Shown here in pieces: positions 9,907 to 64,000 of a DNA stretch of 64,000 nucleotides; the first letter of the stretch is position 1; every line of letters begins with the position of its first letter. The notes under the pieces were generated by a model that saw only the letters and a program-made list of their open reading frames with translations, searched no databases and was not told the origin of the DNA. The DNA is from Minisyncoccota bacterium (GTDB lineage: Bacteria > Patescibacteriota > Minisyncoccia > Phycocordibacterales > UBA9973). The position numbers were made by a program, and so were the translations under genes. The stretch spans positions 155,161-219,160 of the forward strand of contig JALOQM010000001.1 of NCBI GenBank assembly GCA_025453495.1. The letters are read 5' to 3'.

Positions 9907-10317
9907 TTAGAGCATATACTGCACATACTCTACTTCAATCTCTTTATCTTCCGCATATTGTATTTCCGATCTGACACCGAGTGAGTGCTCAAAACCAGGA
10001 AGGACGTAGAGTTTGGTGATGAGTCCAGATTGTATGACGCCTTTGTAGAAGATTTCAAATTTTGCCGCATACTCACGCGGCGCGTTATCATGATAGATAT
10101 CAAGATACGGTGTCTGATCAAATACCTGGTGGCCATCCGCTTCAAGTTCGGCAATCATATTTTTCATCACAGAGAGATTGTGCTCAAACTCATCAGTGTC
10201 GACACCAAGTACGCCCGATACCATCACAAAAGAGCCACCAAGAGCGTGCATGTTGGCAAGTGCAGTATCATGCAGGCGAGTGTAATAGTATGTGGAATTT
10301 GTATCGTATGTTTCCAT
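9907..10317 (-). CDS. Hypothetical protein, possibly nucleoside 2-deoxyribosyltransferase-like (DUF4406-like)
   Basis: 136 aa; C-terminal ...LYVLPGFEHSLGVRSEIQYA... resembles the NDT-family Glu-containing motif; lies in an AT-rich block. Confidence 0.35.
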   Translation of the reverse strand: METYDTNSTYYYTRLHDTALANMHALGGSFVMVSGVLGVDTDEFEHNLSVMKNMIAELEADGHQVFDQTPYLDIYHDNAPREYAAKFEIFYKGVIQSGLITKLYVLPGFEHSLGVRSEIQYAEDKEIEVEYVQYML

Positions 10318-22284: not shown

Positions 22285-22295
22285 AATCCAGATTC

Positions 22296-22715: not shown

Positions 22716-22718
22716 GTT

Positions 22719-29765: not shown

Positions 29766-29767
29766 GG

Positions 29768-31035: not shown

Positions 31036-31060
31036 AATTTGAAATTAATACTCCTTCATT

Positions 31061-33438: not shown

Positions 33439-34420
33439 AATAAGCTTTAAACTCATCCGAGTAGAAGGTAAATTCATTGTAGCTCTCAGCAAACTTTTTA
33501 TTTGTAACATACACGTCCATTGGTTGAGCGTTTGTGTCTATAACAACACAATTAGCTTGATTATTTGTAATAAATGGGAGCTTTCTGCTGTTCCATGCAT
33601 CATATGCAAGGTGTTCTGAATCCGCATTACCAAAGAGTGTAAGCTTGGGCTTAAGCACATCAAGAAAATCATATGACCTGTCTGATTTTCGTCCATGGTG
33701 AGGAGCGATAAGTACGTCAATATCTTTTACATCATCACTATGGTTTTTGAGAATATGATCCCATGTTTTATCGTGGGAATCTCCAGCAAGAAGAATTTTG
33801 CCACCCTTTGAACGGTACAAGATGACATAGGAAGAATCATTATAATCCTCTGCGTCATTTCCTTCTTCAACCAACTTCTTAGTCGGAGATAGGATATATA
33901 ATCCGTCGCCACCACCTTTGCCATTCTCATCATGATTATAATGATGACCTCTTGACCCAGAATAAAGAACGAGTCGTCGAGGGTCACTTTGCGGGTTTTC
34001 ATCACGCATCTTCTTGTAAAACTCCCAATCTTCTGGATCATAAGGGCTACCTTCTTCAAATTCCTTTTCGCATGTATTGTCTGTATCCCAAAAGTTCTGA
34101 GGTTTAAAAATATCAAATAAGACCTTGATCCCTGACATATGATCCATGTCGGGGTGTGTCAAAATAAATCTAAAAACTTTATCCACGCCAAATTCCTTTA
34201 AGTATCTTATTGGATTTACGGGCAATGACTTCTGATTGAAATTACCAGAAACACTTAGTGTTTCAACAACTGCCTCTCTAACGATTTTTTTGAGCTCGTA
34301 GTTCTTTTCATCAGCAATTGCGCTACCGTTACAGATATCGAAAACACTTACATGTCCTGAGGGGTGTTGAATAATCGAGCAATCACCATTCTTAACATTT
34401 AAAAAGTGAAATACTCCCAT
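33419..34420 (-). CDS. Metallo-beta-lactamase-fold protein of the ComEC/Rec2 C-terminal-domain type
   Basis: 333 aa; N-terminal ...FLNVKNGDCSIIQHPSG...; THPDMDHMSG (HxHxDH-like) and LIAPHHGRKSD are typical of ComEC-type metallo-beta-lactamase domains. Confidence 0.6.
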   Translation of the reverse strand: MGVFHFLNVKNGDCSIIQHPSGHVSVFDICNGSAIADEKNYELKKIVREAVVETLSVSGNFNQKSLPVNPIRYLKEFGVDKVFRFILTHPDMDHMSGIKVLFDIFKPQNFWDTDNTCEKEFEEGSPYDPEDWEFYKKMRDENPQSDPRRLVLYSGSRGHHYNHDENGKGGGDGLYILSPTKKLVEEGNDAEDYNDSSYVILYRSKGGKILLAGDSHDKTWDHILKNHSDDVKDIDVLIAPHHGRKSDRSYDFLDVLKPKLTLFGNADSEHLAYDAWNSRKLPFITNNQANCVVIDTNAQPMDVYVTNKKFAESYNEFTFYSDEFKAYFIDQVA

Positions 34421-34425
34421 AGTTT

Positions 34426-35121
34426 TTATTTACCTACATATTCTTGAAAAAGAGAGCGAGCGTATCTCTTTCCGTGATTATGAATTAGTTTTTTATTCAA
34501 AAGCATCAGGAACAGATACGCCAGTGCCATGGCAAGTGAAAGATAGTATGCCGCATGGATGTCTTTAACTAGAGAGAATACAAACATGTTTATAATAGAG
34601 ACAAATACAGAAATAACCGAACATCCGATCAAGTTTCTTATAAACCCGTATTCAATATTTCTCGACAGCAATAGTCGACCATCTTTCAGCGAATGACGAA
34701 TAAGCGTTACTGCTTCAGCAATCGCTTTTCTTGCCTCGGTTTCGTTTCGGATCTCTTCATCGGGAATAAAAATTTGGATGTTATAGTCAACCTTTATTTT
34801 GTCATGAATTTTTTGCTTGAATTGTAGCGTGTACTCACTGTTAGAATGTAAGAGAAAATCTGTTGTGGGCATTCTAGTCTCATCTCGACTAAACCAAGTT
34901 GACTCATAGAGGTCTTTACCTATAGATCTTCCAATAAATGAAAGTAGTATTAGAAAGACAACGGGGGTGGATATGTCGCCGACCCAGCTCACTCCAAAAA
35001 TTAGTTTGAAGAAACCAGACAAATGGTCGTTGAGGAAAAAGAAATAAAGAACTAGAAAAGGAAAGGATGCGAGTATTGCAGGAAGGATTCTTGCCTGAAT
35101 TGTATATTGGTTGAGTTTCAT
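34426..35121 (-). CDS. Hypothetical polytopic membrane protein (231 aa)
   Basis: Two N-terminal and two C-terminal TM segments; lies between the two metallo-beta-lactamase-fold genes with 3-5-nt gaps. Confidence 0.4.
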   Translation of the reverse strand: MKLNQYTIQARILPAILASFPFLVLYFFFLNDHLSGFFKLIFGVSWVGDISTPVVFLILLSFIGRSIGKDLYESTWFSRDETRMPTTDFLLHSNSEYTLQFKQKIHDKIKVDYNIQIFIPDEEIRNETEARKAIAEAVTLIRHSLKDGRLLLSRNIEYGFIRNLIGCSVISVFVSIINMFVFSLVKDIHAAYYLSLAMALAYLFLMLLNKKLIHNHGKRYARSLFQEYVGK

Positions 35122-35123
35122 AT

Positions 35124-36179
35124 TTATTCTTCTACATAATCATGGAATGGCTCCTGTACTGCAGGACCCCATCCTTGTCGGGTGGGAGCGAGATGTGGAT
35201 GACAAAGCGTCATATTTTTAGTTACATATACAAGTGCGCCATACTTTTTGAGTCCGTTGATGACCTTCTTCGATGGGTGTTTATCTGAGTTTTGAGGCGC
35301 AGAAATCGAAGCTATTACTCCGTTTATCCTTTTGAGAACTTTACTACTCATATTTCGCTTACTGCCATGATGAGGAACATCGAGCAGATTTAGTCCTGTG
35401 AGAACTATACCCTTGGTGTCTGCGTAGTCTGCAGCCAGATGGAGTGCCGTTTTACCTGCATCTCCAGTGAAAAGGATCTTATGTCCGTCTATGTTCAAAA
35501 AGACAATTGCACTTGAATTATTTTCTGCGGAGGTTGAATCCGTGTCATCATCAAGAAGATCGATGTGGATAAAATCCTGAATTTTCTTTGCAACGGTCTC
35601 GATCGCTCTTACAGCGGGCGCTAAAAATCCCAAGGCGGCAACAGGCTCTGGGGTAGAACGGAAATGAGCAAGAAGACCCTGATAATATTCCTTCGATGGA
35701 CCAAGTACGTGCAGTGCATCATTGAATCCAGTAACACCCTGAAACGGTTCAACGATTTGGACACCTTTCTTCTTTGCAATTGCCTCAAGATCACTCGCAT
35801 GTTGCAGAGCTTTTTCCAATTTATCACTCAAGCCAGAGGATGTGATACGCCCGTTAACGAAATGCTTTTTAATATCTTCTGCATGTTCCCATGGCCTGTG
35901 CATAGCTAGAGTAGTTACATTGAGTTTTTCTAGGACAACAGTGAGTCCAGACGCGTGATCGGCATCAGGATGGGTACAGAATACAACGTCGACAATTTCT
36001 GTGCCGTAGTATGTTTTGATGTGATTAACAAGTGTCTCTCCAGACTCTTTTGTTCCTCCGTCGATTACGATAACAGTTTGCTCTGTTCTTGGGCCTGTCA
36101 GGTTTCCGAAGCGAAGTGCGATAGCGTCGCCTCCTTTTTCTCCTTCTCCTACAGGAATGTAGTCAATTTCATAAGCCAT
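35124..36179 (-). CDS. Metallo-beta-lactamase-fold protein of the ComEC/Rec2 C-terminal-domain type (paralogue of 33419..34420)
   Basis: 351 aa; VIDGGTKESGE...VDVVFCTHPDADHASGL...LLDVPHHGSKRNMSS. Confidence 0.6.
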   Translation of the reverse strand: MAYEIDYIPVGEGEKGGDAIALRFGNLTGPRTEQTVIVIDGGTKESGETLVNHIKTYYGTEIVDVVFCTHPDADHASGLTVVLEKLNVTTLAMHRPWEHAEDIKKHFVNGRITSSGLSDKLEKALQHASDLEAIAKKKGVQIVEPFQGVTGFNDALHVLGPSKEYYQGLLAHFRSTPEPVAALGFLAPAVRAIETVAKKIQDFIHIDLLDDDTDSTSAENNSSAIVFLNIDGHKILFTGDAGKTALHLAADYADTKGIVLTGLNLLDVPHHGSKRNMSSKVLKRINGVIASISAPQNSDKHPSKKVINGLKKYGALVYVTKNMTLCHPHLAPTRQGWGPAVQEPFHDYVEE

Positions 36180-36191
36180 ATAAAGTTAGTG

Positions 36192-36812
36192 CTAAAATTT
36201 TGGTAATACTGACACGACAACTCCTTGGATATGAAAATCATCCGTAAGAATTATTGGCTGATGAGTGGGGTTTGTCGATTTTGGCTTCAGCATTACAAAA
36301 TCACCTTGAGGATGATACTCCTTAACGGTAGCGTCATCATCTATAAGAGCTACGACTTTTTGACCAGGATCAGCTGAGGACTGTTGCTTCACCAGAAGCA
36401 AGTCTCCGTCGTTGATGCCAGCTTTATTCATAGAGTCGCCATTTGCACGAAGTAGGAAGTACTTTGATCCTGGCTTCACCATACTTACAGAAACTGGGAT
36501 CATAGCTTCGACATTTTCTTCGGCAAGCATAGGCGCGCCACAGGATACACTTCCAATCAAGGGAAGCGAGATGGTTCGGGCCACGATACCTTCTCTTAGG
36601 TCTTTAATGAACTGAAGGGTGCCGTCGGTCTTTTTCTTTAGAAATCCTCCAGACTCAAGTTCTTCGAGAAGCAACATCGCTGATCGAGGAGACTTATAAT
36701 CCAAAGCATCCATCAGCTTTCTGACAGAGGGAACCTTTCCGAAATGCATCACGTTGTTGCGGATGAACTTCAGGGCTTCACGTGCTTTTTGGCTTAACTC
36801 TTTGTCACTCAT
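36192..36812 (-). CDS. lexA: LexA-type repressor (wHTH plus S24 peptidase)
   Basis: 206 aa; C-terminal GDSM (Ser nucleophile) and a downstream Lys (VKEYHP); N-terminal HTH. Confidence 0.8.
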   Translation of the reverse strand: MSDKELSQKAREALKFIRNNVMHFGKVPSVRKLMDALDYKSPRSAMLLLEELESGGFLKKKTDGTLQFIKDLREGIVARTISLPLIGSVSCGAPMLAEENVEAMIPVSVSMVKPGSKYFLLRANGDSMNKAGINDGDLLLVKQQSSADPGQKVVALIDDDATVKEYHPQGDFVMLKPKSTNPTHQPIILTDDFHIQGVVVSVLPKF

Positions 36813-52988: not shown

Positions 52989-53807
52989 ATGAAAGCAGCC
53001 AGTACCACCAACAGCCAGATCAAGTCGCTTGTCAGCACTGGTCGTGCAATGTTCGATATGCCGGTCACCGACATGGTTGAGCAAGCAATCCCATACTTCC
53101 TGCAATTAACACAGGAAGATGAAGCAAGGAGGATGCAATGGCTTGTTGACCTTTCAGGCGACAGGCATGATCCTGATGACGGTCTCGTCGAAAAGAACGG
53201 CGAGGGGACTGATGACCGAAAATTCTTTTTCCATTACCGACCCCACATCGAGCACATAATCCACGCAAACGGCGGGAATACTGTAAAGTACGGAAAGTAC
53301 ATCAGTCTTCTTTCGGAAATTTACCGGCAGTGTGAACACACGTTCCAGGGAATTATTGGCGGTATCGATGAAGCATTACCCGGCTATCGATTGCTGGAAA
53401 AGTACATGAAGCTGAAGCCAGGAGAGCGCGGAGTGCTCCGTTTGCTTTTTTACAAACCGGGCAACCGCATCCTTGCCAAGGCGCATACCGACCGCAATTT
53501 CGGCACACTGCATATCCATGAATCATATCCGGGATTGTATCTTGATGATGACAAGGAGTGCTTTAAGGTAGAGCGGGACAAGTCACTCGTCTTTTTCGGG
53601 GAAAAAGCGAGCATTGAAACAGATGGGGCACTCAAGCCTTCCATTCATTATGTGGAAGCCACAACATCGGAGTGGCGCTGGTCGGTGGTGTATTTTGCGC
53701 ATATCGAGTGCCGGCTTAGCCAGCACGAGATCGAAGCTATCGTGAAAAAGAAAAAAACCGAGTTTTCATACCCAAATCACGGTAACGAGACGCATTGCCC
53801 AAGGTAA
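52989..53807 (+). CDS. Hypothetical protein, possibly 2OG-Fe(II) oxygenase-like
   Basis: 272 aa; candidate HxD...H triad (AHTDRN ... SIHYVEA); about 50% GC, well above neighbouring genes; sits where rplA would be expected. Confidence 0.3.
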   Translation: MKAASTTNSQIKSLVSTGRAMFDMPVTDMVEQAIPYFLQLTQEDEARRMQWLVDLSGDRHDPDDGLVEKNGEGTDDRKFFFHYRPHIEHIIHANGGNTVKYGKYISLLSEIYRQCEHTFQGIIGGIDEALPGYRLLEKYMKLKPGERGVLRLLFYKPGNRILAKAHTDRNFGTLHIHESYPGLYLDDDKECFKVERDKSLVFFGEKASIETDGALKPSIHYVEATTSEWRWSVVYFAHIECRLSQHEIEAIVKKKKTEFSYPNHGNETHCPR

Positions 53808-53882: not shown

Positions 53883-54365
53883 TTATTTCTCCAAAACAAC
53901 ATACGAATACGGTACGCCTGTTTTTTCGTCTATTAGTTTTTCTTCAGAAATCACTTTTTTGAAATCACTGTAGTCAGGGAAAAATACATCAGCCTCTTTG
54001 TGATCATCTATGATCGTAAGATAGAGACGATCAGCTATATTGATCGACTGGCGGTATATTTCCGCGCCACCGATGATGAAAATAGCAGTGCCGGATTCTC
54101 TTGCTTTTGCGAGCGCTTCATCGAGTGAATGCGCCACGATGACACCTTCTGGCGGAGTAAAATCGCTATTTCTTGTGATCACGATATTGTGGCGGTCGGG
54201 GAGTGTCCGTCCGATTGATTCAAATGTTTTTCGCCCCACGATGATCACATTGCCGGTCGTGAGCGCGCGAAAGCGCTTCAAATCAGCACTGATGCGATAG
54301 AGAAGCTCATTCTTAGAGCCAAGCCCGCGATCACTCTTTTGTATGGCGGCGATTAGCGCGATCAT
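53883..54365 (-). CDS. folA: Dihydrofolate reductase
   Basis: 160 aa; [52 protein letters not shown]... Confidence 0.9.
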   Translation of the reverse strand: MIALIAAIQKSDRGLGSKNELLYRISADLKRFRALTTGNVIIVGRKTFESIGRTLPDRHNIVITRNSDFTPPEGVIVAHSLDEALAKARESGTAIFIIGGAEIYRQSINIADRLYLTIIDDHKEADVFFPDYSDFKKVISEEKLIDEKTGVPYSYVVLEK

Positions 54366-55330
54366 CAGACGGCGATCGGTGCTTTGATGGCATCGTGCGG
54401 ATTGTAGTCGACCAGTTCGAAATCATCGATCGTGAAATCTTCGATGTTCTTGATAGCAGGATTGATCTTCATTGTTGGCATCGGACGGATGTCATTTTCG
54501 CGGGCAAGCTGCGTTGCTACCTGATCGAGATGATTGAGGTACAGGTGCACGTCGCCGCCGGTCCAGACGAACTCTCCCGGCACAAGTCCGGTCACTTGCG
54601 CGATCATCATGGTCAAGAGGGCATACGAAGCGATATTAAATGGAACACCGAGAAATGTATCGCATGAGCGTTGATAGAGTTGGCAAGATAATTTCCCATC
54701 TGCGACATAAAATTGGAAGAGACAGTGGCATGGCGGAAGTCCTGCTTTTGCCATCTCATCTATATCAGCAACATTCCATGCAGAGACGATTATGCGACGA
54801 GAGTCAGGAGACTTCTTGATCTGTTCGATGACCTGCGCGAGCTGATCGATATGCGCGCCGTTTGGCGCGGGCCAGTTGCGCCACTGGTAGCCATAGATGG
54901 GACCAAGGTTCCCATACTCTTTTGCGAAGACAGCATCTGATACTATTTTTTCTACGAATTCTTTGATACCAGACTGCCATTCTGGAGAATCAGATTTTGG
55001 CACAGGTATATTGTTTTTGACCAGATACGCTTTGTATGGCCACTCGTCCCAGATATGCACATTATTGTCGGCAAGATACTTGAGATTGCTATCACCACGG
55101 ACAAACCAGATAAGCTCATGGATGATTGCTTTGATCGGTACTTTTTTTGTAGTGAGAAGTGGGAAGCCGTCGGCGAGATTAAACCGCATCTGGTAACCAA
55201 AGACGCTTTTTGTTCCGGTACCTGTACGATCAGTTTTGGTTGCGCCTTCACTCATGATGTGTTTGAGGAGTGCGAGATAGGTTGTATCAACGTGTGTTTT
55301 TTGCATACTTTTATTATATGTCCTTTTCAT
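54365..55330 (-). CDS. thyA: Thymidylate synthase (ThyA)
   Basis: ...[20 protein letters not shown]... and ...[42 protein letters not shown]... (catalytic Cys); overlaps folA by 1 nt. Confidence 0.9.
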
Positions 55331-55485
55331 TCAATACCCAACATATAGCATCTGTATGCGATCGTGCATAAATAGTTATATTTTGGATGTTGCTGTAATG
55401 TGCTACAATAGCACTATAGCAATCCATACTACTCTCATGATTTAACTTTCTTCCGCCACATTTTTATTACTCATCTAACCCGGCA

Positions 55486-56679
55486 ATGCCGTCTACTTAC
55501 ATGAAAGATACACAGATACAAAAACTCATCAAGGCGGAAGCAAAAAGACAAAAAAACGTTATCAATCTCATCGCATCTGAGAACTACGTTTCCAAAGATG
55601 TACTGACCGCACTTGGCTCAGAACTTACAAATAAATACGCCGAAGGCTATCCTGGTCGCAGATACTATGGCGGTAATGAAATCGTCGACAAGGTAGAACT
55701 CCTCTGTATTTCGCGCGCGCTCAAACTATTTAAATTAAAACCAACCGAGTGGCACGTGAACGCACAACTTCTCTCTGGTTCGCCAGCGAACTTCGCACTT
55801 TACTCTGCGCTCGTGCCAATCGGTGGGAAAATTATGGGCATGAAGCTCTCCTCCGGCGGCCACCTTACACATGGCCACCCATTGTCGATGACTGGAAAAC
55901 TGTGGAAACCAATACAGTTTGAACTTGATTCGCAGAGAGAAATTATTGATTACGATGCACTTTTAAAAATTGCGATAAAAGAAAAGCCAGATATGATTGT
56001 CGCAGGATTTACTGCGTATCCGCGTATCGTTGATTTCAAAAAGTTTCGTAAGATAGCAGATGCATGTGGTGCATTGCTCCATGTCGATATGGCACACTTT
56101 TCTGGGCTTGTTGCGGGTGGACAGTATCCATCGCCATTTCCATATGCTGATACTGTCATGACAACGACACACAAGAGCCTCCGCGGTCCACGTCAAGCAC
56201 TTGTCTTTGTCCGCAAAGATGCGCGAGAATTTGATAAGAAACTCGACAAGATGGTTATCCCAGGCCTCTTTGGTGGACCACATGAGAATAATATTGCTGC
56301 TGTCGCTGTTGCACTCAAAGAAGCTGATTCACCAGTATTCAAGAAATATGCAAAACAAGTCATCCAGAACGCTAAGACACTCGCCAAAGAATTACAGAAA
56401 CGTGGCTGGCGCATTATCTCTGGTGGTACAGATTCTCATCTCATTCTTGTGGATACTTGGATGCAAGGTGCTGGTGTTTCTGGTAAAGAGGCGAGTATAA
56501 GACTCGAAAAAGCCGGTATTATCGTGAATATGAATACAATTCCTGGTGATACACGTTCAGTTATGGATCCGTCGGGTATTCGTCTTGGTACCTGTGCAGA
56601 GACGACTCGTGGCAAGAAAGAGAAGGATATGCTAAAGATTGCCGAGAAAATAGATACGGCACTCCGCGCGAAAAAATAA
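55486..56679 (+). CDS. glyA: Serine hydroxymethyltransferase
   Basis: ...GGHLTHGHPLS... and ...TTTHKSLRGPR... (PLP lysine); 397 aa. Confidence 0.9.
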   Translation: MPSTYMKDTQIQKLIKAEAKRQKNVINLIASENYVSKDVLTALGSELTNKYAEGYPGRRYYGGNEIVDKVELLCISRALKLFKLKPTEWHVNAQLLSGSPANFALYSALVPIGGKIMGMKLSSGGHLTHGHPLSMTGKLWKPIQFELDSQREIIDYDALLKIAIKEKPDMIVAGFTAYPRIVDFKKFRKIADACGALLHVDMAHFSGLVAGGQYPSPFPYADTVMTTTHKSLRGPRQALVFVRKDAREFDKKLDKMVIPGLFGGPHENNIAAVAVALKEADSPVFKKYAKQVIQNAKTLAKELQKRGWRIISGGTDSHLILVDTWMQGAGVSGKEASIRLEKAGIIVNMNTIPGDTRSVMDPSGIRLGTCAETTRGKKEKDMLKIAEKIDTALRAKK

Positions 56680-57089
56680 TGAAAATTTTTATCTGTTCTA
56701 GTAAACATTTCTACCCACATGTCGCTCCTATTAAGGAGGCGCTTGAGAAAGCAGATCACGTTATCACACTTCCCAACAGTTACGATAATCCTACGAAAGA
56801 ATTTGAAATGAAAGATAGTGGACAAGAAGTGCATAGTGTCTGGAAGGGTGAAATGCTCAAGCTTCAGAGCATGAAAGTTGCAGCCAATGACGCGATTCTT
56901 GTTTTAAATATGGAAAAAAATGGTCAGCAGAATTACATTGGTGGAGCCACCTTTCTTGAAATTTTCAAAGCGTTTGAGCTTGGTAAAAAAATCTTTTTGT
57001 ATAATCCGATTCCCGAAAATATACTAAAAGATGAATTATGCGGCATGAACCCTACTGTTATTAATGGTAATTTAGAGCTGATACTATGA
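56679..57089 (+). CDS. Nucleoside 2-deoxyribosyltransferase-like protein
   Basis: 136 aa; MKIFICSS... N-terminus and ...YIGGATFLEIFKAFELGKKIFLY... Rossmann-like NDT layout; overlaps the next gene by 4 nt. Confidence 0.45.
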   Translation: MKIFICSSKHFYPHVAPIKEALEKADHVITLPNSYDNPTKEFEMKDSGQEVHSVWKGEMLKLQSMKVAANDAILVLNMEKNGQQNYIGGATFLEIFKAFELGKKIFLYNPIPENILKDELCGMNPTVINGNLELIL

Positions 57090-57496
57090 AAATCTATTTT
57101 GCAGGGTCGATACGAGGAGGTAGAGATGATGCAGCACTGTATGCAGAGATTATCAAGCTACTTGCTAATTATGGTGAGGTGTTGACGGAACACATTGGTC
57201 TTAAGGATCTTTCATCTTTGGGTGAAGAGCGAACTCCTCAAGACATTTACGAACGCGATATGGATTGGTTGCTTGGTGCCGATGTCCTCGTCGCTGAAGT
57301 GACGACGACGAGTCTCGGTGTAGGGTATGAAATCGGAGAAGCAGTTGCAGTCGGTAAGCGTATTATGTGTTTGTATCGCGAGCAGGAAGGTAAAAAATTG
57401 TCAGCGATGATCGATGGTAATCCAGAGCTCAAAGTCGTGCGCTACGAAGAAGTAAAAGAGCTCAAGAATGTCTTTGATTCATTTTTTAATAAATAA
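57086..57496 (+). CDS. 2'-deoxynucleoside 5'-phosphate N-hydrolase (DNPH1/Rcl)-like N-deoxyribosyltransferase-family protein
   Basis: MKIYFAGSIRGGRDD... N-terminus and ...VLVAEVTTTSLGVGYEIGEA... match the Rcl/DNPH1 signature. Confidence 0.65.
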   Translation: MKIYFAGSIRGGRDDAALYAEIIKLLANYGEVLTEHIGLKDLSSLGEERTPQDIYERDMDWLLGADVLVAEVTTTSLGVGYEIGEAVAVGKRIMCLYREQEGKKLSAMIDGNPELKVVRYEEVKELKNVFDSFFNK

Positions 57497-57501
57497 TTTT
57501 T

Positions 57502-58191
57502 ATGAAAAAAGGGAAACTCATAGTCATCGACGGGACAGACGGATGCGGTAAGGCGACACAAGCTGCGCTTTTAGTCAGTCTTCTTAAAAAAGAAGGATAT
57601 AAAGTAAAAACAATAGATTTTCCTCGTTACTATGATAATTTTTTTGGAAAATTAATTGGTGAATGTCTGGCGGGTAAGCATGGTAATTTTCTTGCCGTCG
57701 ATTCGCATATTGCATCTGTATTATATGCAGCCGACCGATTTGAATCAGGTGCAATCATAAAGAAGTGGGTCGAACAAGGATATATAGTTGTTACTGATCG
57801 ATACGTCAGCTCAAGTCAAATTCATCAAGCAGCAAAAATTAAGAATAAAAAAGAAAGAAAAAAGTTTCTTGATTGGCTAGACCAAATGGAATATGAAGTA
57901 TTTAAGATTCCTAAGCCAGATATGGTTATGTACCTTGATGTCTCAGTAGAGCTGAGTCAAAAGTTAATGAGAAACAAGGATCAGGCCTACAAGAAGAGAT
58001 ATCTCGAGGGGTCTTTTGATCAGGCAGAAAATGATATAAAGCACCTAACTGATTCAAAGAAAAATTCACGCGATTTGATTCGTGAGTATGGCTGGGTGCA
58101 GATTGATTGCACAAGTAGAGGCAAGATGTTATCAAGAGAAGATATTGCGGAGAAAATCTACGCAAAAATAAAGCCGCTAGTGAAGAAATAA
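57502..58191 (+). CDS. tmk: Thymidylate kinase
   Basis: MKKGKLIVIDGTDGCGKATQ (P-loop) ...VVTDRY... LID region. Confidence 0.9.
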   Translation: MKKGKLIVIDGTDGCGKATQAALLVSLLKKEGYKVKTIDFPRYYDNFFGKLIGECLAGKHGNFLAVDSHIASVLYAADRFESGAIIKKWVEQGYIVVTDRYVSSSQIHQAAKIKNKKERKKFLDWLDQMEYEVFKIPKPDMVMYLDVSVELSQKLMRNKDQAYKKRYLEGSFDQAENDIKHLTDSKKNSRDLIREYGWVQIDCTSRGKMLSREDIAEKIYAKIKPLVKK

Positions 58192-59879
58192 TGTCAATTA
58201 CCAACCAACTCAAAACAATAATCATAGAACTTTTGACCGAACTCGGGATTGAAAATCCGAGCGTATCCTTTGAGCATCCGACCGAGCTTGTGCATGGTGA
58301 CTATTCGACGAATGTCGCGATGGTATATGCCAAAGAACTCAAGAAAAATCCTCGTGTACTTGCAGAAGAGGTCAAGAAATACATACAGAATCAGAAACCA
58401 GATACGATTGAGAATATAGAAATCGCTGGTCCAGGGTTTATTAATTTCTTTCTCTCAAAGCAGTTTTTTGTCGATAGTTTGAAGCACATTATTCGCGAAG
58501 GTGATCAGTTTGGTAGCAATCAAGATGGCGCTGGGAAGAAAGTACTAGTCGAGTATTCGTCACCAAATATCGCAAAACCCTTTACCGTTGGCCATTTACG
58601 CTCGACGATTATCGGTGACGCGGTCGCGAATTTGCTTGCTTTTAGCGGCTATACGGTTATTCGTGACAATCATCTTGGCGATTGGGGGACACAGTTTGGC
58701 AAACTGATTGTCGCGATCAAGAAGTGGGGAGATTTTGAGGCAATCAAAAAAAGCCAAACACCGATCAAAGAGCTCGTCGATTTGTATGTGAAATTCCATG
58801 ATGAGGCAGAAAAAGACGCTTCACTTGAGGATGAAGGACGCGCATGGTTTACCAAGCTCGAACAAGGCGACAGTGACGCGCGTGCGCTGTGGCAGATGTG
58901 TGTCGCACTTTCGATGCAAGAATTTGATCGTATCTATGCACGGCTTCGTGTGAGTGCATTTGATACTGCTCTTGGTGAGAGTTTTTTTGAAGATAAGATG
59001 GCTGCGGTGCTTGTTGATGTAAAAGCAACAAATATTGCCAAAGAATCCGAAGGCGCATATCTTATCTTTTTTGACGAAGAAAAGACGAAATTACCACCAC
59101 TTATGCTCACTAAGAAAGACGGTTCATCGCTCTACGCCCTTCGCGATCTTGCCGCTGATCGCTATCGCAGAGAGACATATGGTACTGATATCACAATCAT
59201 CAATGAAGTCGGTGCTGAGCAGTCGCAGTATTTCCGTCAGATATTTGAAGCAGAAGAACTGCTCGGGTATTTCCCGAAGTCACAGCGCGTGCATATCGGA
59301 CATGGGCTCTATCGCTTTGCGGAAGGGAAGATGTCGACACGCAAAGGCAATGTCATTTGGCTTGATGATATATTGAACGAAGCAGAAAAGCGCGCTGGTG
59401 AACTCAATGAAGCAACAAAGACTGATGTCGCACTCGCGGCGATTAAGTTCAATGATCTCAAACGTGAAGCAATCAAAGATATTGTCTTTGATTGGGATGA
59501 AATACTCAACCTCCATGGCGACACTGGACCGTATCTGCAGTATGCGCATGCACGTTGTGTATCAGTGCTTGAGAAAGCACGTGAGTCGCTTATTGAGCCG
59601 GTTGCAACAGATACACTACAGCAAGCAGGGTCAGTAGAGAAACTTGTCTATCGTTTTCCGGAAATAGTCTCTCGTGCGACTAGTGAGTATGCACCGCATT
59701 ACATTGCGACGTATCTCATCGAGCTTGCGCATGCGTTTTCTACTTACTATGCTGAGACAAAAATTGTTGATCCTGAAGATCATCTTTCTCCGTATAAAGT
59801 CGGTCTCACAAAGGCAGTCAAAATAGTTTTAAAAAATGGGCTGTCTCTCCTTGGTATTCCGACACCAGAGAAGATGTAA
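58191..59879 (+). CDS. argS: Arginyl-tRNA synthetase
   Basis: 562 aa; ...SSPNIAKPFTVGHLRSTIIGDAV... (HIGH-type motif) and C-terminal DALR anticodon-binding region. Confidence 0.9.
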   Translation: MSITNQLKTIIIELLTELGIENPSVSFEHPTELVHGDYSTNVAMVYAKELKKNPRVLAEEVKKYIQNQKPDTIENIEIAGPGFINFFLSKQFFVDSLKHIIREGDQFGSNQDGAGKKVLVEYSSPNIAKPFTVGHLRSTIIGDAVANLLAFSGYTVIRDNHLGDWGTQFGKLIVAIKKWGDFEAIKKSQTPIKELVDLYVKFHDEAEKDASLEDEGRAWFTKLEQGDSDARALWQMCVALSMQEFDRIYARLRVSAFDTALGESFFEDKMAAVLVDVKATNIAKESEGAYLIFFDEEKTKLPPLMLTKKDGSSLYALRDLAADRYRRETYGTDITIINEVGAEQSQYFRQIFEAEELLGYFPKSQRVHIGHGLYRFAEGKMSTRKGNVIWLDDILNEAEKRAGELNEATKTDVALAAIKFNDLKREAIKDIVFDWDEILNLHGDTGPYLQYAHARCVSVLEKARESLIEPVATDTLQQAGSVEKLVYRFPEIVSRATSEYAPHYIATYLIELAHAFSTYYAETKIVDPEDHLSPYKVGLTKAVKIVLKNGLSLLGIPTPEKM

Positions 59880-60533
59880 ATGAAAAAAAAGAAAGTAATA
59901 ATTTTTGATATGGATGGAGTGCTTTTTGACTCTATACCATTTGCGGAGAAATATTTCCTTGAGAGGCACCCCGGGGTTACATCGAAAATGTATAGAGAGC
60001 TTTCCTCTGGAAATTATCTTGAAGAAGTTAAAAAATATTCTAATTTCAAAAAAAACTACACGCCGGAAGATGAAAAAAAATCAGCTGAATGGTATACGGA
60101 ACAGAAAAAAAGAACTCCTTTATTTAAAGGTATTGAAGAGTTATTAGCAGACTTGCATGCCAAAAGTTACATACTTGCACTAAATACGAGTGCGTATAAA
60201 GAGAAGTGTCTCCCACTCCTTATTCATTCAAGAATTGAGCAAATGTTTGATTTTATTGGAACTGCAGAAGTCGCCAAAACAAAGGTTGAAAAATTCAATT
60301 TAATTCTACGTAAATATAAAGTTGGGAAAGAGGATATCGTTTTTGTAACTGATTCCTTAGGAGATCTTAAGGAGGCGTATATATCACATATTCCCACAAT
60401 TGCTGTTACCTGGGGTGTTCATGACAGAAAGCATTTTCTTGATCCACAATATTCAAATTTGATCAAAATTGTGGATACGGTTGAAGATTTGAGAGATACT
60501 ATCTTTGGTGTTTTTGCGTTAGAAAAAATATAG
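59880..60533 (+). CDS. HAD-superfamily hydrolase (beta-phosphoglucomutase-like)
   Basis: VIIFDMDGVLFDS (DxDG motif I); 217 aa. Confidence 0.8.
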   Translation: MKKKKVIIFDMDGVLFDSIPFAEKYFLERHPGVTSKMYRELSSGNYLEEVKKYSNFKKNYTPEDEKKSAEWYTEQKKRTPLFKGIEELLADLHAKSYILALNTSAYKEKCLPLLIHSRIEQMFDFIGTAEVAKTKVEKFNLILRKYKVGKEDIVFVTDSLGDLKEAYISHIPTIAVTWGVHDRKHFLDPQYSNLIKIVDTVEDLRDTIFGVFALEKI

Positions 60534-60544: not shown

Positions 60545-60820
60545 TCTCATGCACGCTAGTATGAGGGTACAAGCGACGACGAGGGTATCACCTCGTCTGC
60601 CCGCGCCAAAAGCGGGTAAAGCTTCGGGAAGAACTGTCCGCCGACGCCAAAGCTTCGGCGAGACACAATAGACCCCGACGGGTAAGCCCGTTAGCGCTGT
60701 AAATAAGCATCCGCCTATGCGAAAGCTACAGCGTGATAAAACAAGGTGGTACCGCGGGATGAAACTCGCCCTTGGATTATGATGGTTATCGTAATTCGTG
60801 GGCGATTTTTATTTTTTTTA
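60545..60820 (+). promoter_or_regulatory. T-box riboswitch leader (Ile-specific, specifier AUC) with intrinsic terminator, upstream of ileS
   Basis: Hairpin GACGAGG-GTATCAC-CCTCGTC with AUC followed by a purine in the loop (~60578-60598). Conserved T-box sequence AAGGTGGTACCGCGG at ~60743-60757. Terminator CTCGCCC...GGGCGA followed by T10 (~60765-60820). Confidence 0.6.
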
Positions 60821-60823
60821 TAT

Positions 60824-63800
60824 ATGGAAAACAAACAAAATCAAACAGACAAATCAACAACAGCACTTCGTTCCGCTGACGCAAAATCCGCTATGGCTGA
60901 CAGGGAGGAAGCAATATTGAAGCTTTGGGAGGAAAAAGATATTTTTACAAAGACTCTTGAAAAAGAATCACCAAAAGGAGAATTCGTTTTCTACGAAGGA
61001 CCACCAACTGCAAATGGCAAGCCAGGCATTCATCATCTCGAAGGTCGTGCCTTTAAAGATGCGATCCCGCGCTACAAGACAATGCAAGGGTATCACGTGC
61101 GTCGCAAAGGTGGCTGGGATACGCATGGTCTACCAGTGGAACTTCAAGTCGAAAAGAAGCTCGGATTGAAATCGAAAAAAGAGATTGAAGCCTATGGTAT
61201 TGCGAAGTTTAACCAGGAATGTAAAGAGAGCGTTTGGGAATATCGCGACATCTGGGAGAAATTTACGACTCGTATCGGGTATTGGGTGGATCAGAAAGAT
61301 CCATATGTAACCTATGACAATGGATATATTGAATCCTTGTGGAGTGTGCTTGCGCATGTCGAGAAAAAAGAACTTCTCTATAAGGATTACAAAGTGGTGC
61401 CGTGGTGTCCTCGCTGTGGCACTGCGCTTTCTTCACACGAGCTCGCGCAGGGTTATGAAGATGTGAAGGATTTGTCTGTGTATGTGAAGTTTAAAGTCGC
61501 TGGACAAGAGAATACCTATTTGCTTGCATGGACGACGACACCATGGACATTGCCTGGCAACGTCGCGCTTGCGGTGGGTAAGGATGTTGAATATGTTGTT
61601 GTTCAGCATATTGGCACAACTGTTTTTACTACCGATGATGGAAATTACAAACCTCCTACTTTAGAGAAACTAATTTTATCAAAAGATGTCTTTGTAAAAG
61701 AAGATAAAAAGGTTAATCCTACCGACCCACAAAGTAAAAAGTATTTTTTTGGTGATCTCAATAATATTTATGAAATTGTTGGTGAACATAAAGGAAGTGA
61801 TCTCATAGGTTTCTCATATATACCACTCTATCCATTTCTCAAAGACAATCTGCCTGAAAGCGAAAAAGCCAAGCTCGATCGCGCATTCAAAATCTATACT
61901 GCTGATTTTGTCACGACGACGGACGGCACTGGTATTGTGCATATTGCGCCAATGTACGGCAATGACGACTTCGATCTTGGGACAAAAGAAGGGCTCCCGA
62001 AATACCACATCGTAAACGAAGATGGCACATTTAAGTCGGAGACGGGATTTCTTACTGGACAATTTGTAAAGGAAGAAACTGTTGCAGTTTCTGTAATCAA
62101 AGATCTTGCGTCACGTGATCTCCTTTTCAAAAAAGAAAAATACGAGCACAGCTATCCGCATTGCTGGCGTTGTAAGACACCGCTTATCTACTACGCTCGT
62201 GATTCGTGGTATATTCGCATGTCATCACTCAAGAATACGCTTGTAGAAGAAAACAAGTCGATCAATTGGGAGCCTGCGCATATACAAGACGGTCGTTTCG
62301 GTGAGTGGTTGAAGGACATAAAAGATTGGGCTATTTCACGTGAACGCTACTGGGGTACACCGCTTCCGATTTGGGAAACTCTAGATCGAAGTGAGCGTAT
62401 TGTTGTCGATTCGCTCGAGACACTTAAAAAGTATGTCAAAAAATCAGGTAATACCTACTTTGTCATGCGGCACGGTGAATCTGAGAACAATCTCACACGG
62501 ACGATTTCTGTCGTTGCTGATGCGCCCGATCATCTGACTGAGAATGGAAGAGTGCAAGTGCGTACATCAGCAAAGCAGTTGCAGCAAGAAGGATTTGATC
62601 TTATTATCGCATCACCATTTGTACGCACGAGAGAAACAGCAGCAATTATGGCAGAAGTACTTGGTATTCCAAATGAATCAGTTGTCATTGATGAACGTCT
62701 CAGCGAAATGAATCCAGGTGACTTTGGTGGTACAACATGGAAGGAATATCACGAACGTATCCCAAAGACAGTAGAGAATTTCAAAACAGCGCTTCCTGGT
62801 GGTGAATCATATCAACAAGTAAAACAGCGTATTGGTGAAATGTTGTATGGTCTTGAAGAAAAATATCAAAATAAAAAGATACTGTTGGTTACCCATGGAA
62901 GTCCTTTTTGGACACTGTCTGCAGTGATCAATGGACATACTCCACAACAAGTTATTGACATGCTTGCAATGGATGATGAATTGCGTTTTATTAAAAATGC
63001 AGAACATAGAAAACTAGATTTTGCTCCATTGCCACACAATGCGGAGTATGAGCTTGATCTGCATCGTCCTTTCATTGATGACATCGTGCTTGTAAAAGAT
63101 GGTAAAGAGTATCACCGTGTAAAGGAGGTAATGGATGTGTGGTTTGATTCAGGTGCTATGCCGTTTGCACAAGACCATTATCCTTTTGCAAATAAAGAAT
63201 GGGTAGAAGGTCCAGGGTATCCAGCAGACTTTATATCTGAAGGTGTTGATCAGACACGTGGATGGTTTTATACACTGCACGCTGTCGGTATCCTTATGGG
63301 CAGAGGATATGCGTATAAAAATGTCATCTGTCTCGGACATATTCTCGATGCAGAAGGCAAGAAAATGTCTAAGTCACTCGGAAATGTTGTCGATCCGTGG
63401 ATTATGATGGACAAATACGGTGTCGATACACTGCGTCTGTGGATGTACTCAGTCAATCAACCAGGTGATTCAAAGAATTTCGATGAGCGGACAGTTGCGG
63501 AACTCCACAACAAAATTTTTAACCTGCTATATAATGTCGTTTCATTTTATGAGCTCTATCGTGATACATCTCTTGAGGATACGGCCTTGTCGACATCAGT
63601 GCATGTGCTTGATAGATGGATCACGGCACGTCTTGATGAGCTCACCGAAAAAGTAACAAAAAATCTTGACGCATTTAAACTCCTTGAACCAGTGCGCGAA
63701 ATCCGCACGTTCATCGATGATCTTTCAACATGGTATGTCCGCCGTTCACGTGATCGTATGAAAGATGGCGATACGGCAGCAAAGCAGACACTGTATGCTG

Positions 63801-64000
63801 TGCTCAAAAAACTCATCATGATTATGGCGCCGTTTGCCCCATTTGCCACAGAAGACCTCTGGCAGAAACTAAAGACTACAAACGACGTCGAAAGTGTGCA
63901 TTTGGCAAAGTGGCCTGATACAACTGAGTTTTCTCAAGAAGAGATAGCTCGTATGCAAGAAGTCCGTATGGTTGTCTCAAGTGGTCTTGAAGCACGACAA
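60824..64000 (+). CDS. ileS: Isoleucyl-tRNA synthetase, 3' end beyond window; carries an in-frame inserted domain of about 190 aa resembling a histidine phosphatase (PGAM superfamily)
   Basis: MENKQNQ...PPTANGKPGIHHLEGRA (HIGH)...WAISRERYWGTPLPIWE ... [..NTYFVMRHGESENNLTRTI...LLVTHGSPFW...] ...DLHRPFIDDI...DVWFDSG...GKKMSKSLGN (KMSKS). Single open frame with no stops; start is approximate to within 1 nt. Confidence 0.85.
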   Translation, partial: MENKQNQTDKSTTALRSADAKSAMADREEAILKLWEEKDIFTKTLEKESPKGEFVFYEGPPTANGKPGIHHLEGRAFKDAIPRYKTMQGYHVRRKGGWDTHGLPVELQVEKKLGLKSKKEIEAYGIAKFNQECKESVWEYRDIWEKFTTRIGYWVDQKDPYVTYDNGYIESLWSVLAHVEKKELLYKDYKVVPWCPRCGTALSSHELAQGYEDVKDLSVYVKFKVAGQENTYLLAWTTTPWTLPGNVALAVGKDVEYVVVQHIGTTVFTTDDGNYKPPTLEKLILSKDVFVKEDKKVNPTDPQSKKYFFGDLNNIYEIVGEHKGSDLIGFSYIPLYPFLKDNLPESEKAKLDRAFKIYTADFVTTTDGTGIVHIAPMYGNDDFDLGTKEGLPKYHIVNEDGTFKSETGFLTGQFVKEETVAVSVIKDLASRDLLFKKEKYEHSYPHCWRCKTPLIYYARDSWYIRMSSLKNTLVEENKSINWEPAHIQDGRFGEWLKDIKDWAISRERYWGTPLPIWETLDRSERIVVDSLETLKKYVKKSGNTYFVMRHGESENNLTRTISVVADAPDHLTENGRVQVRTSAKQLQQEGFDLIIASPFVRTRETAAIMAEVLGIPNESVVIDERLSEMNPGDFGGTTWKEYHERIPKTVENFKTALPGGESYQQVKQRIGEMLYGLEEKYQNKKILLVTHGSPFWTLSAVINGHTPQQVIDMLAMDDELRFIKNAEHRKLDFAPLPHNAEYELDLHRPFIDDIVLVKDGKEYHRVKEVMDVWFDSGAMPFAQDHYPFANKEWVEGPGYPADFISEGVDQTRGWFYTLHAVGILMGRGYAYKNVICLGHILDAEGKKMSKSLGNVVDPWIMMDKYGVDTLRLWMYSVNQPGDSKNFDERTVAELHNKIFNLLYNVVSFYELYRDTSLEDTALSTSVHVLDRWITARLDELTEKVTKNLDAFKLLEPVREIRTFIDDLSTWYVRRSRDRMKDGDTAAKQTLYAVLKKLIMIMAPFAPFATEDLWQKLKTTNDVESVHLAKWPDTTEFSQEEIARMQEVRMVVSSGLEARQ

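Follow-up and report, generated by a model that had tools for sequence, protein, structure and literature searches.

Among the described systems closest to the locus considered here, the LOG/PpnN nucleotide 5'-monophosphate nucleosidases are functional analogues with a Rossmann-like fold and a GT-x-x-E-type motif, and they hydrolyze nucleoside monophosphates (NMPs) to the free base and ribose 5-phosphate. MilB-type enzymes (MilB, BcmB, and BlsM; CMP and hydroxymethyl-CMP N-glycosidases) come from antibiotic biosynthesis clusters and not from housekeeping loci. In the nucleoside 2-deoxyribosyltransferases (NDTs), the general-acid Asp and the 5'-OH ligands are represented by Asp92 and Asn123 of the L. 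leichmannii enzyme. DNPH1, also called Rcl, is a 2'-deoxynucleoside 5'-phosphate N-hydrolase (5-hydroxymethyl-dUMP N-hydrolase) whose reaction yields deoxyribose 5-phosphate (dR5P); in the human enzyme, Tyr24, Asp80, and Glu104 form the catalytic triad, Ser98 and Ser128' bind the phosphate at positions that are Asp and Asn in NDTs, Arg30, Glu55, His56, Ile29, and Ile76 serve as base-recognition or water-activating residues, and Asp73 is the salt-bridge partner of Arg30 (PMC10603095).

A clear relative of this human nucleotide-pool "sanitiser" is packed among the thymidine-nucleotide synthesis genes of an ultra-small (CPR) bacterium, in a window of 64,000 nucleotides (the whole stretch of DNA that was analyzed). 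Two adjacent genes are of interest: ORF2, which is of the already known DNPH1 kind, and ORF1, which belongs to an already known superfamily as an uncharacterized variant.

Layout of the thymidylate locus and of related islands

The module spans positions 53883–58191 and holds six genes, not the seven counted in a first-pass annotation, with folA and thyA divergent from a plus-strand unit of glyA, ORF1, ORF2, and tmk that continues through argS to a HAD phosphatase gene (Table 1). From glyA through the phosphatase gene, stop and start codons overlap or nearly abut: the glyA stop and ORF1 start share TAATG, ORF1 and ORF2 overlap by 4 bp (ATGA), both as read at the junctions, tmk starts 5 nt past the end of ORF2, and the tmk stop and argS start overlap by 1 nt at base 58191. 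Similarly, base 54365 is common to the folA start and the thyA stop codon. Promoters for both directions presumably lie in the divergent intergenic region, in which no consensus sigma-70 site was called and a promoter scan returned nothing above chance. The argS gene has no obvious functional link to the dTMP genes, although it sits in the same tightly packed unit; because it shares their transcription unit, CPR operons can be said to mix unrelated functions. The HAD-IA phosphatase, which found only sub-threshold matches in NCBIfam, including phosphoglycolate phosphatase and pyrimidine 5'-nucleotidases, is a possible nucleotidase.

Table 1. Features of the locus and a putative third NDT-fold gene, with positions in the window
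Feature	Position	Strand	Size	Assignment and basis
folA	53883..54365	-	160 aa	Dihydrofolate reductase; PF00186 (DHFR_1), E 8e-49, full-length match
thyA	54365..55330	-		Thymidylate synthase; PF00303 (Thymidylat_synt), E 8e-121
thyA-glyA divergent intergenic region	55331..55485		155 bp	Sequence reading
glyA	55486..56679	+		Serine hydroxymethyltransferase; PF00464 (SHMT), E 3e-153
ORF1	56679..57089	+	136 aa	Divergent NDT superfamily member
ORF2	57086..57496	+	136 aa	DNPH1/Rcl orthologue; PF05014, E 1.6e-15
tmk	57502..58191	+	229 aa	dTMP kinase; PF02223 (Thymidylate_kin), E 6e-22
argS	58191..59879	+		Arginyl-tRNA synthetase; three ArgRS Pfam domains
HAD-IA phosphatase	59880..60533	+		HAD_2, E 1e-19; directly 3' of argS
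Putative third NDT-fold gene	9907..10317	-	136 aa	DUF4406-like

All four thymidylate enzymes are confident family members, and the profiles confirm the earlier assignment of GlyA, ThyA, and FolA to dTMP synthesis and of Tmk to its phosphorylation; the first three supply a complete thymidylate cycle (dUMP to dTMP) and Tmk the next phosphorylation. ThyA, of 321 aa as the longest open reading frame and 313 aa according to gene callers, is of the canonical, long L. casei/Enterococcus type, matching E. coli thymidylate synthase (2tsc) at E 8e-110 in a search of PDB sequences and aligning across the full length of the 315–316 aa Enterococcus and L. casei enzymes (3uwl, 1lca), while Tmk scores 89.7 against TIGR00041 (cut-off 83.25). 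No dut, dcd, thymidine kinase, or nucleoside phosphorylase appears among the window's genes in their precomputed Pfam annotation, which lends no support to the salvage route suggested by the first-pass annotation. Within the window, no source of 5-hydroxymethyl-dUMP (hmdUMP) was seen.

Only a few related lineages link ORF1 to dTMP genes: thyA, glyA, or tmk lies near ORF1 in 4 of 80 loci from other species, and none of four other DNPH1 loci examined shows such linkage, their neighbors being unrelated (e.g., BipA, SecG, and ribosomal proteins). A glyA-ORF1-tmk core with varying flanks recurs in the relatives' loci L012, L013, and L063, and these islands carry additional pool-sanitizing or pyrimidine genes; L012 comprises comEB, a MazG-like gene, folA, thyA, glyA, ORF1, tmk, DNPH1, dut, and argS, L063 comprises dcd, folA, thyA, glyA, ORF1, tmk, dut, and argS, and L013 is described by ORF1, CYTH, NUDIX, tmk, NUDIX, and dut. 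In place of tmk, the Nomurabacteria MAG locus L010 has one uninterrupted gene (L010:6458-7462) in which Thymidylate_kin (residues 11–187) is fused to Nuc_deoxyrib_tr (residues 201–297), that is, a Tmk-DNPH1 fusion. All four of these loci also place argS after the module. An unassigned 2OG-oxygenase-like gene adjoins the module in the window and has no counterpart in the loci of the relatives.

ORF2 and ORF1 within the NDT superfamily

Judged by its sequence, ORF2 is unambiguously a DNPH1/Rcl orthologue, as its signature had led the first-pass annotation to propose. It matches rat Rcl (2khz) at E 7.7e-38 over query residues 2–134 and human DNPH1 chains at E of about 1e-35, and it aligns with rat Rcl end to end, with 55% identity over the whole alignment. 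In an alignment of 23 homologues including rat Rcl, residues Y4, I9, R10, E35, H36, I54, D58, S76, E82, and S106, which correspond in order to human Y24, I29, R30, E55, H56, I76, D80, S98, E104, and S128, are conserved, and all key DNPH1 residues but one are invariant, namely the catalytic triad (Y4, D58, and E82), the phosphate-binding serines (S76 and S106), and R10, E35, H36, I9, and I54. The exception is the position of human D73, which is Asp in most bacterial DNPH1 homologues and Pro51 in ORF2. The Glu-His helical element, the isoleucines that sandwich the base, and the two serines that bind phosphate are all present, and the protein keeps nearly every residue with which human DNPH1 recognizes and cleaves 5-hydroxymethyl-dUMP, the putative substrate of ORF2. 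Length and domain organization are those of the rat and human enzymes; ORF2 differs from them in lacking the eukaryotic N- and C-terminal tails, in a "shielding loop" two residues shorter, in the Pro noted above, and in being embedded in a thyA/tmk operon (or, in one relative, fused to Tmk). Nucleoside swapping, which had been suggested for this gene, does not suit an enzyme kind that hydrolyzes nucleoside 5'-monophosphates and is not a transferase.

ORF1, by contrast with ORF2, was not recovered by the profile search that the first-pass annotation had recommended for both genes: it found no match in Pfam, NCBIfam, or PDB sequences, and PF05014 did not match it even at E ≤ 10, short of the family gathering score. 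Its predicted structure (pLDDT 96) shows an alpha/beta fold of the flavodoxin type, built on five parallel strands, for which NDTs are the best match and rank at the top by two methods, and every Foldseek match to the model at E ≤ 1e-3 is an NDT or YtoQ. Among 70 distant relatives, 33 match PF05014 at E ≤ 0.01 (best 1e-7). One relative, P0339, reaches 30.1 bits where the cut-off is 28.8. On the basis of this modeled fold and transitive homology, ORF1 is a divergent, uncharacterized member of the NDT superfamily, so that the earlier claim of two overlapping superfamily genes between glyA and tmk holds for both. Because both belong to this superfamily, the outcome that had been named as fatal to the claim, membership of an unrelated Rossmann family such as TIR or LOG, did not materialize. 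A TIR domain was rejected for ORF1 (none of the 70 family members matches a TIR Pfam model, and there is no defense context), as was a LOG/SLOG domain (neither the PGGxGTxxE motif nor a PF03641 match was found, and none of the 70 matches a LOG Pfam model).

Of the catalytic Glu and phosphate-binding Ser/Arg that the first-pass annotation had proposed to look for, ORF2 has the Glu (E82) and both serines (S76 and S106), and ORF1 has the Glu. This Glu94, in a GGATFLE motif, never varies among close family members, is conserved at 90% or more in the broad family, and aligns with E88 of Chroococcidiopsis thermalis NDT (CtNDT) and with the nucleophile of DNPH1 where the helix after beta-4 begins, which puts an invariant Glu at the nucleophile position. 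The beta-1 Tyr that lies under the 2'-deoxyribose (Tyr7 in NDT, Tyr24 in DNPH1) is absent from ORF1, where the position is Phe4 in the close family and variable but hydrophobic in the broad family; the Gly/Ser-Ser that follows beta-1 is nearer to DNPH1 (GS) than to NDT (GP). Conserved D71, N77, N109, D118, and E119 are candidates for the general-acid Asp and the 5'-OH ligands, but at an hhalign probability of 6.6% the alignment there is too weak to place any of them with confidence. The invariant set (S8, K9, Y12, P32, N33, H52, W55, K56, N77, D118, and E119) is particular to ORF1. Compared with the short type-II NDTs (CtNDT 8pqp/8rh3, Desulfotalea 7o62, and Bacillus psychrosaccharolyticus 6evs), to which its identity is only 10–21%, ORF1 further differs in lacking a PF05014 match, in having Phe in place of CtNDT Tyr7, and in a six-residue insertion (K-x-G-x-x-N-Y) before the GG-x-T-x-x-E motif. 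No sequence similarity to MilB, BcmB, or BlsM is detectable, and the phosphate-binding Arg23 and Ser97 of MilB have no clear counterpart; likewise, neither the Pfam model of YtoQ (Bacillus, PDB 8of6; Nuc_deoxyri_tr3) nor that of DUF4406/PA1492-like proteins (1t1j) matches ORF1.

About 1,300 clusters make up the ORF1 family, and almost all of them come from CPR bacteria or DPANN archaea. The family is exceptionally conserved, with a mean identity of about 59–61% within and between the two domains alike, and it behaves as a single-copy, housekeeping-type gene without defense-island neighbors. Pfam-defined fusions join it to MazG, NUDIX, NTPase_I-T (ITPase-like), a CobU-like kinase (Tmk/CobU-like), and an RNase T exonuclease. 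In another relative, P0274, an HD-like C-terminal region is apparent by eye only, with no Pfam match. Recurrent neighbors across 80 species are a clamp-loader AAA+ protein, NUDIX, Tmk, dNK, NDK, MGMT, UvdE, and topoisomerase I, with PfkB-family kinases and NDK as occasional ones, and homologues on huge viral contigs adjoin a Pol III alpha PHP fragment.

Proposed role and alternative explanations

With moderate confidence, the locus may be read as a compact pyrimidine-deoxynucleotide operon in a Paceibacteria (CPR) genome, one that would both make dTMP and control the quality of the monophosphate pool. ORF2 would cut the N-glycosidic bond in aberrant dNMPs, of which 5-hydroxymethyl-dUMP, the human substrate, is the likeliest, to give free base and deoxyribose 5-phosphate before Tmk could pass the aberrant nucleotide on to dNTPs and DNA. 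Glu94 would let ORF1 act by the same double-displacement mechanism on the glycosidic bond of some other nucleotide or nucleoside, cleaving it or possibly transferring it; a (d)NMP made by house-cleaning NTP pyrophosphatases is the likeliest candidate. It may accept ribo-substrates, as MilB does, because Phe and not Tyr occupies the site through which NDT and DNPH1 impose 2'-deoxy specificity. Tentatively, ORF1 could be an unrecognized nucleotide N-glycosidase (or an N-ribosyl or deoxyribosyl transferase) with a specificity unlike that of DNPH1, exchanged between domains and core to a nucleotide economy that in ultra-small symbionts depends on scavenging, where it would clear a class of damaged, modified, or ribo-contaminating NMPs released by MazG/NUDIX/ITPase-type enzymes. 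Filters of this kind are plausible for organisms whose DNA is made mostly of scavenged nucleotides, and the handling of noncanonical nucleotides, the second option of the first-pass annotation, is favored by the hmdUMP residues kept in ORF2 and by the fusions of ORF1 relatives to house-cleaning NTP pyrophosphatases.

The adjacency itself might be largely incidental, a product of long mixed operons in a streamlined CPR genome in which ORF1 and DNPH1 serve general nucleotide turnover without any particular link to thymidylate; the presence of argS and the HAD gene in the same unit, the differing ORF1 neighbors in 76 of 80 species loci, and the unrelated DNPH1 neighbors in four other genomes speak for this account, which is nevertheless doubtful in view of the glyA-ORF1-tmk core that recurs despite differing surroundings, the Tmk-DNPH1 gene fusion, and the entry of dut, dcd, comEB, and MazG into the same island in relatives. 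A genuine nucleoside 2'-deoxyribosyltransferase, whose base swapping (the swapping route of the first-pass annotation) would feed salvage where deoxynucleotides cannot be made de novo, is an unlikely identity for ORF1, given Phe4 at the place of the NDT Tyr, the DNPH1-like residues after beta-1, the lack of a thymidine/deoxynucleoside kinase or phosphorylase in the window to use the products, and fusion partners (MazG, NUDIX, and ITPase-like) that release nucleoside monophosphates and not nucleosides.

Nucleoside-based carbon metabolism is a known trait of CPR and DPANN organisms, and both glycosidases could on that account be catabolic, turning scavenged (d)NMPs into (deoxy)ribose 5-phosphate for carbon and energy and into bases for phosphoribosyltransferase salvage, with no sanitizing function. 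The chemistry would be the same as in the sanitizing model, DNPH1 yielding dR5P (PMC10603095), and PfkB-family kinases and NDK do occasionally lie beside ORF1; however, the window's precomputed Pfam annotation has no deoC, deoB, or RuBisCO-pathway gene, ORF2 keeps the residues specific to the hydroxymethyl-uracil base, and a site beside biosynthetic thyA and tmk speaks against bulk catabolism, which together leave this explanation distinctly improbable. Least credible, and very improbable indeed, is that ORF1 is not a nucleotide glycosidase at all but a TIR-like or SLOG-like NAD+/nucleotide-binding or signaling domain, or a non-catalytic partner, against which stand the contrasting Pfam counts among its 70 relatives, the exclusively NDT or YtoQ Foldseek matches, and the single-copy, housekeeping-type character of the family.

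The third NDT-like gene reported by the first-pass annotation may have an NDT-like fold of the DUF4406 (PF14359)/PA1492-like kind, but it is encoded by the minus strand, and on the plus strand a stop codon interrupts the frame; it is nearly an orphan in surroundings without nucleotide context and is probably unrelated to the dTMP module.

The thymidylate gene cluster

The interval 53883-58191, to which the first-pass annotation had assigned seven genes, holds six according to the ORF listing and Pfam: folA and thyA on the minus strand and, divergently, glyA, ORF1, ORF2, and tmk, where ORF1 and ORF2 denote the two genes inserted between glyA and tmk (table). A 155-bp spacer separates thyA-folA from the glyA-side unit, in which glyA and ORF1 join through TAATG, ORF1 and ORF2 through ATGA, ORF2 and tmk across a 5-nt gap, and tmk and argS through a 1-nt overlap; these overlapping or abutting junctions are consistent with one translationally coupled unit divergent from thyA-folA. 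Shuffled controls had more promoter-like sites than the real sequence, and terminator-like sites lay about 2 sd above the shuffled expectation with no interpretable one among them.

Table. Coordinates of the features discussed (window positions unless a locus is named)
Feature	Position	Strand	Observation
folA	53883-54365	-	DHFR_1, 8e-49 (Pfam)
thyA	54365-55330	-	Thymidylat_synt, 8e-121 (Pfam)
glyA	55486-56679	+	SHMT, 3e-153 (Pfam)
ORF1	56679-57089	+	136 aa; no Pfam match
ORF2	57086-57496	+	136 aa; Nuc_deoxyrib_tr, 1.6e-15 (Pfam)
tmk	57502-58191	+	Thymidylate_kin, 6e-22 (Pfam); TIGR00041 also passed
argS	58191-59879	+	three ArgRS domains (Pfam)
HAD-IA phosphatase	59880-60533	+	HAD_2, 1e-19 (Pfam)
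2OG-like gene	52989-53807	+	272 aa; borderline 2OG-Fe(II) oxygenase match (Pfam), E 7e-5, 23.5 bits vs cut-off 23
Third NDT-like gene	9907-10317	-	sub-threshold DUF4406 match (Pfam)
Isoleucyl-tRNA synthetase	60746-64000, past window end	+	1,211 aa on full contig
Mobile or foreign segment (likely)	17267-36812		GC up to 0.47-0.51 at 18-26 kb
ParB-N6/N4 methyltransferase genes	18191-20222		inside segment
RHS/YD-repeat toxin	22719-28847	-	2,042 aa; Tox-REase-7 end; inside segment
Serine recombinase	32086-33438		inside segment
LexA-like repressor	36192-36812		inside segment
LOOT RNA (RF03000)	30446-30571	-	full-length match, 81.5 bits vs gathering score 46.4
Tmk-DNPH1 fusion gene	L010:6458-7462		334 aa
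ORF1-family gene	L092:5001-5420		IMG/VR contig, 504 kb, putative huge phage
ORF1-family gene	L093:4899-5504		IMG/VR contig, 416 kb, putative huge phage

Judged by its sequence, ThyA is a canonical thymidylate synthase (TS) in the long form known from L. casei and Enterococcus. It matches E. coli TS at 8e-110, can be aligned with 3uwl and 1lca from end to end, and retains the PCH motif with the active-site cysteine as well as the Asn of FNIASY. Because of these canonical features and the overlapping folA, a hydroxymethylase role for ThyA is disfavoured. The HAD-IA phosphatase, last in the operon, could be a candidate nucleotidase of the module; its NCBIfam matches are all sub-threshold, and phosphoglycolate phosphatases are among them along with pyrimidine 5'-nucleotidases of the YjjG and other types. 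Between rplK and folA lies a 2OG-like gene whose location beside the thymidylate genes is suggestive, and nothing was found in support of a link; as a source of hydroxymethyl-uracil it was set aside, given its borderline Pfam match, the lack of a PDB relative, and the absence of a homologue from all 80 related loci sampled.

ORF2 and ORF1 as members of the NDT superfamily

DNPH1 acts by double displacement through a glycosyl-Glu intermediate, releasing the base and deoxyribose 5-phosphate; in humans it is studied as a cancer target (PARP-inhibitor sensitisation), and its physiological role has been recognised only recently. The close match of one inserted gene to the DNPH1/Rcl signature, noted earlier, was borne out, and ORF2 is assigned by sequence to the DNPH1 family. 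Its residues 2-134 match rat Rcl (2khz) with E 7.7e-38, and human DNPH1 chains score about 1e-35. Residue roles were taken from structural work on human DNPH1 in complex with 5-hydroxymethyl-dUMP (hmdUMP) (PMC10603095) and were read from an alignment of ORF2, 21 bacterial homologues, and rat Rcl. Invariant there are the catalytic Y4, D58, and E82 (human Y24, D80, and E104), the water-activating and base-reading pair E35 and H36 (E55, H56), R10 (R30), the base-sandwiching I9 and I54 (I29, I76), and the phosphate- and hydroxymethyl-coordinating serines S76 and S106 (S98, S128'). Among the residues with assigned roles only one departs from the human enzyme: Pro51 takes the place of D73, and the loop around it has two residues fewer. 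Homologues of ORF2 form more than 7,400 clusters in Patescibacteria, Bacteroidota, and others, and already carry the labels "nucleoside 2-deoxyribosyltransferase" or "2'-deoxynucleoside 5'-phosphate N-hydrolase"; DNPH1, like the dTMP genes, is therefore of a known kind.

The window derives from a Candidatus Pacebacteria (CPR/Patescibacteria) metagenome-assembled genome, and the ORF1 protein is the same as NCBI entry MUD00_01185, encoded on a 251-kb contig. Searches with ORF1 in Pfam (to E = 10), in NCBIfam, and in the PDB, by phmmer and with a profile of its close family, were uninformative, yielding no match or spurious cytochrome-oxidase IV matches only. Its relatives number 1,723 at 90% clustering; almost every one of the 120 best listed has 136 aa, and these share 65-77% identity and carry no annotation. 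In an exhaustive HMMER scan, 1,307 clusters at 50% identity were found. Sequence bridges and the predicted fold nevertheless identify ORF1 as a divergent protein of the nucleoside 2-deoxyribosyltransferase (NDT) superfamily. A very confident AlphaFold2 model from 35 sequences (pLDDT 96.1, pTM 0.88) retrieved through Foldseek only NDTs or YtoQ among its 15 matches with E <= 1e-3, and PF05014 (Nuc_deoxyrib_tr) matched 33 of 70 more distant family members at E <= 0.01. The first-pass placement of both inserted genes in this family thus held outright for ORF2 and, for ORF1, as a divergent member that differs from classical NDTs in two respects: it stays below the HMM threshold and has no Tyr on beta-1. 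ORF1 has Phe at position 4; the Tyr at the equivalent position of NDT and DNPH1 disfavours a 2'-OH, and the CMP hydrolase MilB has Phe (PMC10603095).

The catalytic Glu sought in both inserted genes was found, as E82 of ORF2 and as Glu94 of ORF1. In the broad ORF1-family profile the conserved Glu aligns with E88 of Chroococcidiopsis NDT, which PDB titles give as the mutated residue (E88A, E88Q), the wild type being ribosylated. The hhalign alignment of ORF1 with DNPH1 is colinear and not significant (probability 6.6%), and served, backed by the broad-profile alignment, only for residue correspondence; in it Glu94 falls on the DNPH1 nucleophile. Family invariants include S8, K9, Y12, P32, N33, H52, W55, K56, N77, Y86, the G88-G89-x-T91-x-x-E94 motif, N109, D118, and E119.

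Within the NDT superfamily, ORF1 defines a hitherto unannotated subfamily centred on CPR and DPANN, of which no description was found in literature on CPR/DPANN/Patescibacteria deoxyribosyltransferases or YtoQ. Mean ORF1 identity in the sampled loci, chosen as best matches and hence biased, is 61.1% within bacteria, 61.0% within archaea, and 58.7% between domains. This unusual conservation (56679-57089, loci L008-L087) suggests inter-domain transfer and/or extreme constraint. The viral collection adds minor support, with only two homologues, both on contigs exceeding 400 kb. On each contig a Pol III alpha PHP-domain fragment immediately precedes the homologue and a YqeY-like gene follows it; on one of them, an "active DUF488-N3a" gene adjoins the homologue.

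Genomic context and proposed function

The 80 loci sampled each come from a different species; going by record title, 35 are bacterial and 45 archaeal. In only four of them does glyA-ORF1-tmk-argS occur opposite thyA, all from related Nomurabacteria and Paceibacterota MAGs, with folA in three; the dTMP linkage is not general, and the claim is confined to one lineage. Genes in these four were named from Pfam, and dut from a sequence motif. L012 carries comEB (dCMP deaminase), a MazG-like gene, folA, thyA, glyA, ORF1, tmk, DNPH1, dut, and argS; L063 carries dcd, folA, thyA, glyA, ORF1, tmk, dut, and argS; in L013, CYTH and two NUDIX genes are inserted between ORF1, tmk, and dut. In L010 (Candidatus Nomurabacteria MAG JAPLXR010000007.1), a single uninterrupted gene, at the position held by tmk and DNPH1 in the window, encodes a divergent thymidylate kinase domain (11-187) fused to a complete DNPH1 domain (201-297). 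No bacterial DNPH1 within a thymidylate operon or fused to Tmk was found described in the literature searched.

In other loci the genes immediately beside ORF1 vary, with clamp-loader/RFC AAA+, NUDIX, Tmk, dNK, NDK, MGMT, UvdE, topoisomerase I, and PfkB kinases recurring. Relatives also fuse the ORF1-like domain to MazG (P0268), NUDIX (P0384), an ITPase-like NTPase_I-T (DUF84) domain (P0338), a CobU-like P-loop kinase (P0256), an RNase T-type exonuclease (P0282), and, by eye only, an HD-like region (P0274). The extensions of other long relatives, P0254, P0258, P0259, P0276, and P0298, had no Pfam match. Two such domains stand in tandem in P0288 and P0268, fitting the two-subunit active sites of the superfamily.

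GlyA, ThyA, and FolA close the thymidylate cycle, and Tmk commits dTMP to the triphosphate pool. The most economical reading is that ORF2, which keeps the determinants for a hydroxymethyl-uracil substrate, would clear hmdUMP or similar aberrant dNMPs ahead of phosphorylation by Tmk; the Tmk-DNPH1 fusion and the dut, MazG, and NUDIX genes in the relatives' islands argue for this role. ORF1 may be a second nucleotide N-glycosidase with a specificity other than that of DNPH1, possibly ribose-tolerant, as proposed from the shared fold and nucleophile and from repeated fusion or adjacency to enzymes converting non-canonical NTPs to NMPs. The combined model of dTMP synthesis with nucleotide-pool quality control, whose substrates are all inferred, is given roughly an even chance.

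That the gene packing is essentially incidental appears somewhat improbable; the neighbours of DNPH1 in four other genomes are unrelated and include no nucleotide genes, while the Tmk-DNPH1 fusion points to a functional tie. A true deoxyribosyltransferase is an unlikely identity for ORF1, which shares the NDT fold and aligned Glu and lacks the beta-1 Tyr of classical NDTs. The salvage route raised in the first-pass annotation gained no ground, as neither a thymidine kinase nor a nucleoside phosphorylase, nor dut or dcd, appears in the precomputed Pfam annotations within the window; a catabolic role, for which DNPH1 chemistry would supply a sugar phosphate, is considered quite unlikely. A TIR/SLOG-like role for ORF1 is highly improbable, since TIR or LOG models, the families named as its possible alternative affiliation, match none of the 70 distant members.

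The reliance of CPR and DPANN organisms on scavenged nucleotides is central to their biology yet poorly resolved. If the model is true, a bacterial DNPH1 guarding the pre-Tmk step against hmdUMP or similar nucleotides would make this an ancient cross-domain strategy, extending beyond animals, on the basis of the same recognition residues, the thymidylate operon, and the Tmk fusion in a relative. ORF1 offers a testable lead for about 1,300 unannotated sequence clusters confined to CPR and DPANN; even an ordinary function would improve the annotation of a widespread "hypothetical protein". The finding as a whole is a good testable annotation lead and no surprise.

Other features of the window

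The third, weaker NDT-like gene noted earlier is probably NDT-like in fold and lies on the minus strand. It has only two other homologues, and a DUF4406-type G-F-E-x-S-x-G-x-x-S-E motif was recognised by eye. It was rejected as part of the module, since it is separated from it by 46 kb, lies on the opposite strand, is a near-orphan, and is flanked by unrelated neighbours (a peptidase C45/AAT-family protein and a PNPOx-like protein); nothing connects it to the module.

Beyond the HAD phosphatase gene lies the isoleucyl-tRNA synthetase gene; in the precomputed Pfam annotations, an inserted His_Phos_1 (histidine-phosphatase) domain separates two tRNA-synt_1 segments of its product. Far upstream, a likely mobile or foreign segment contains methyltransferase, toxin, recombinase, and repressor genes, and the LOOT RNA lies just upstream of two small genes of membrane or unknown type.
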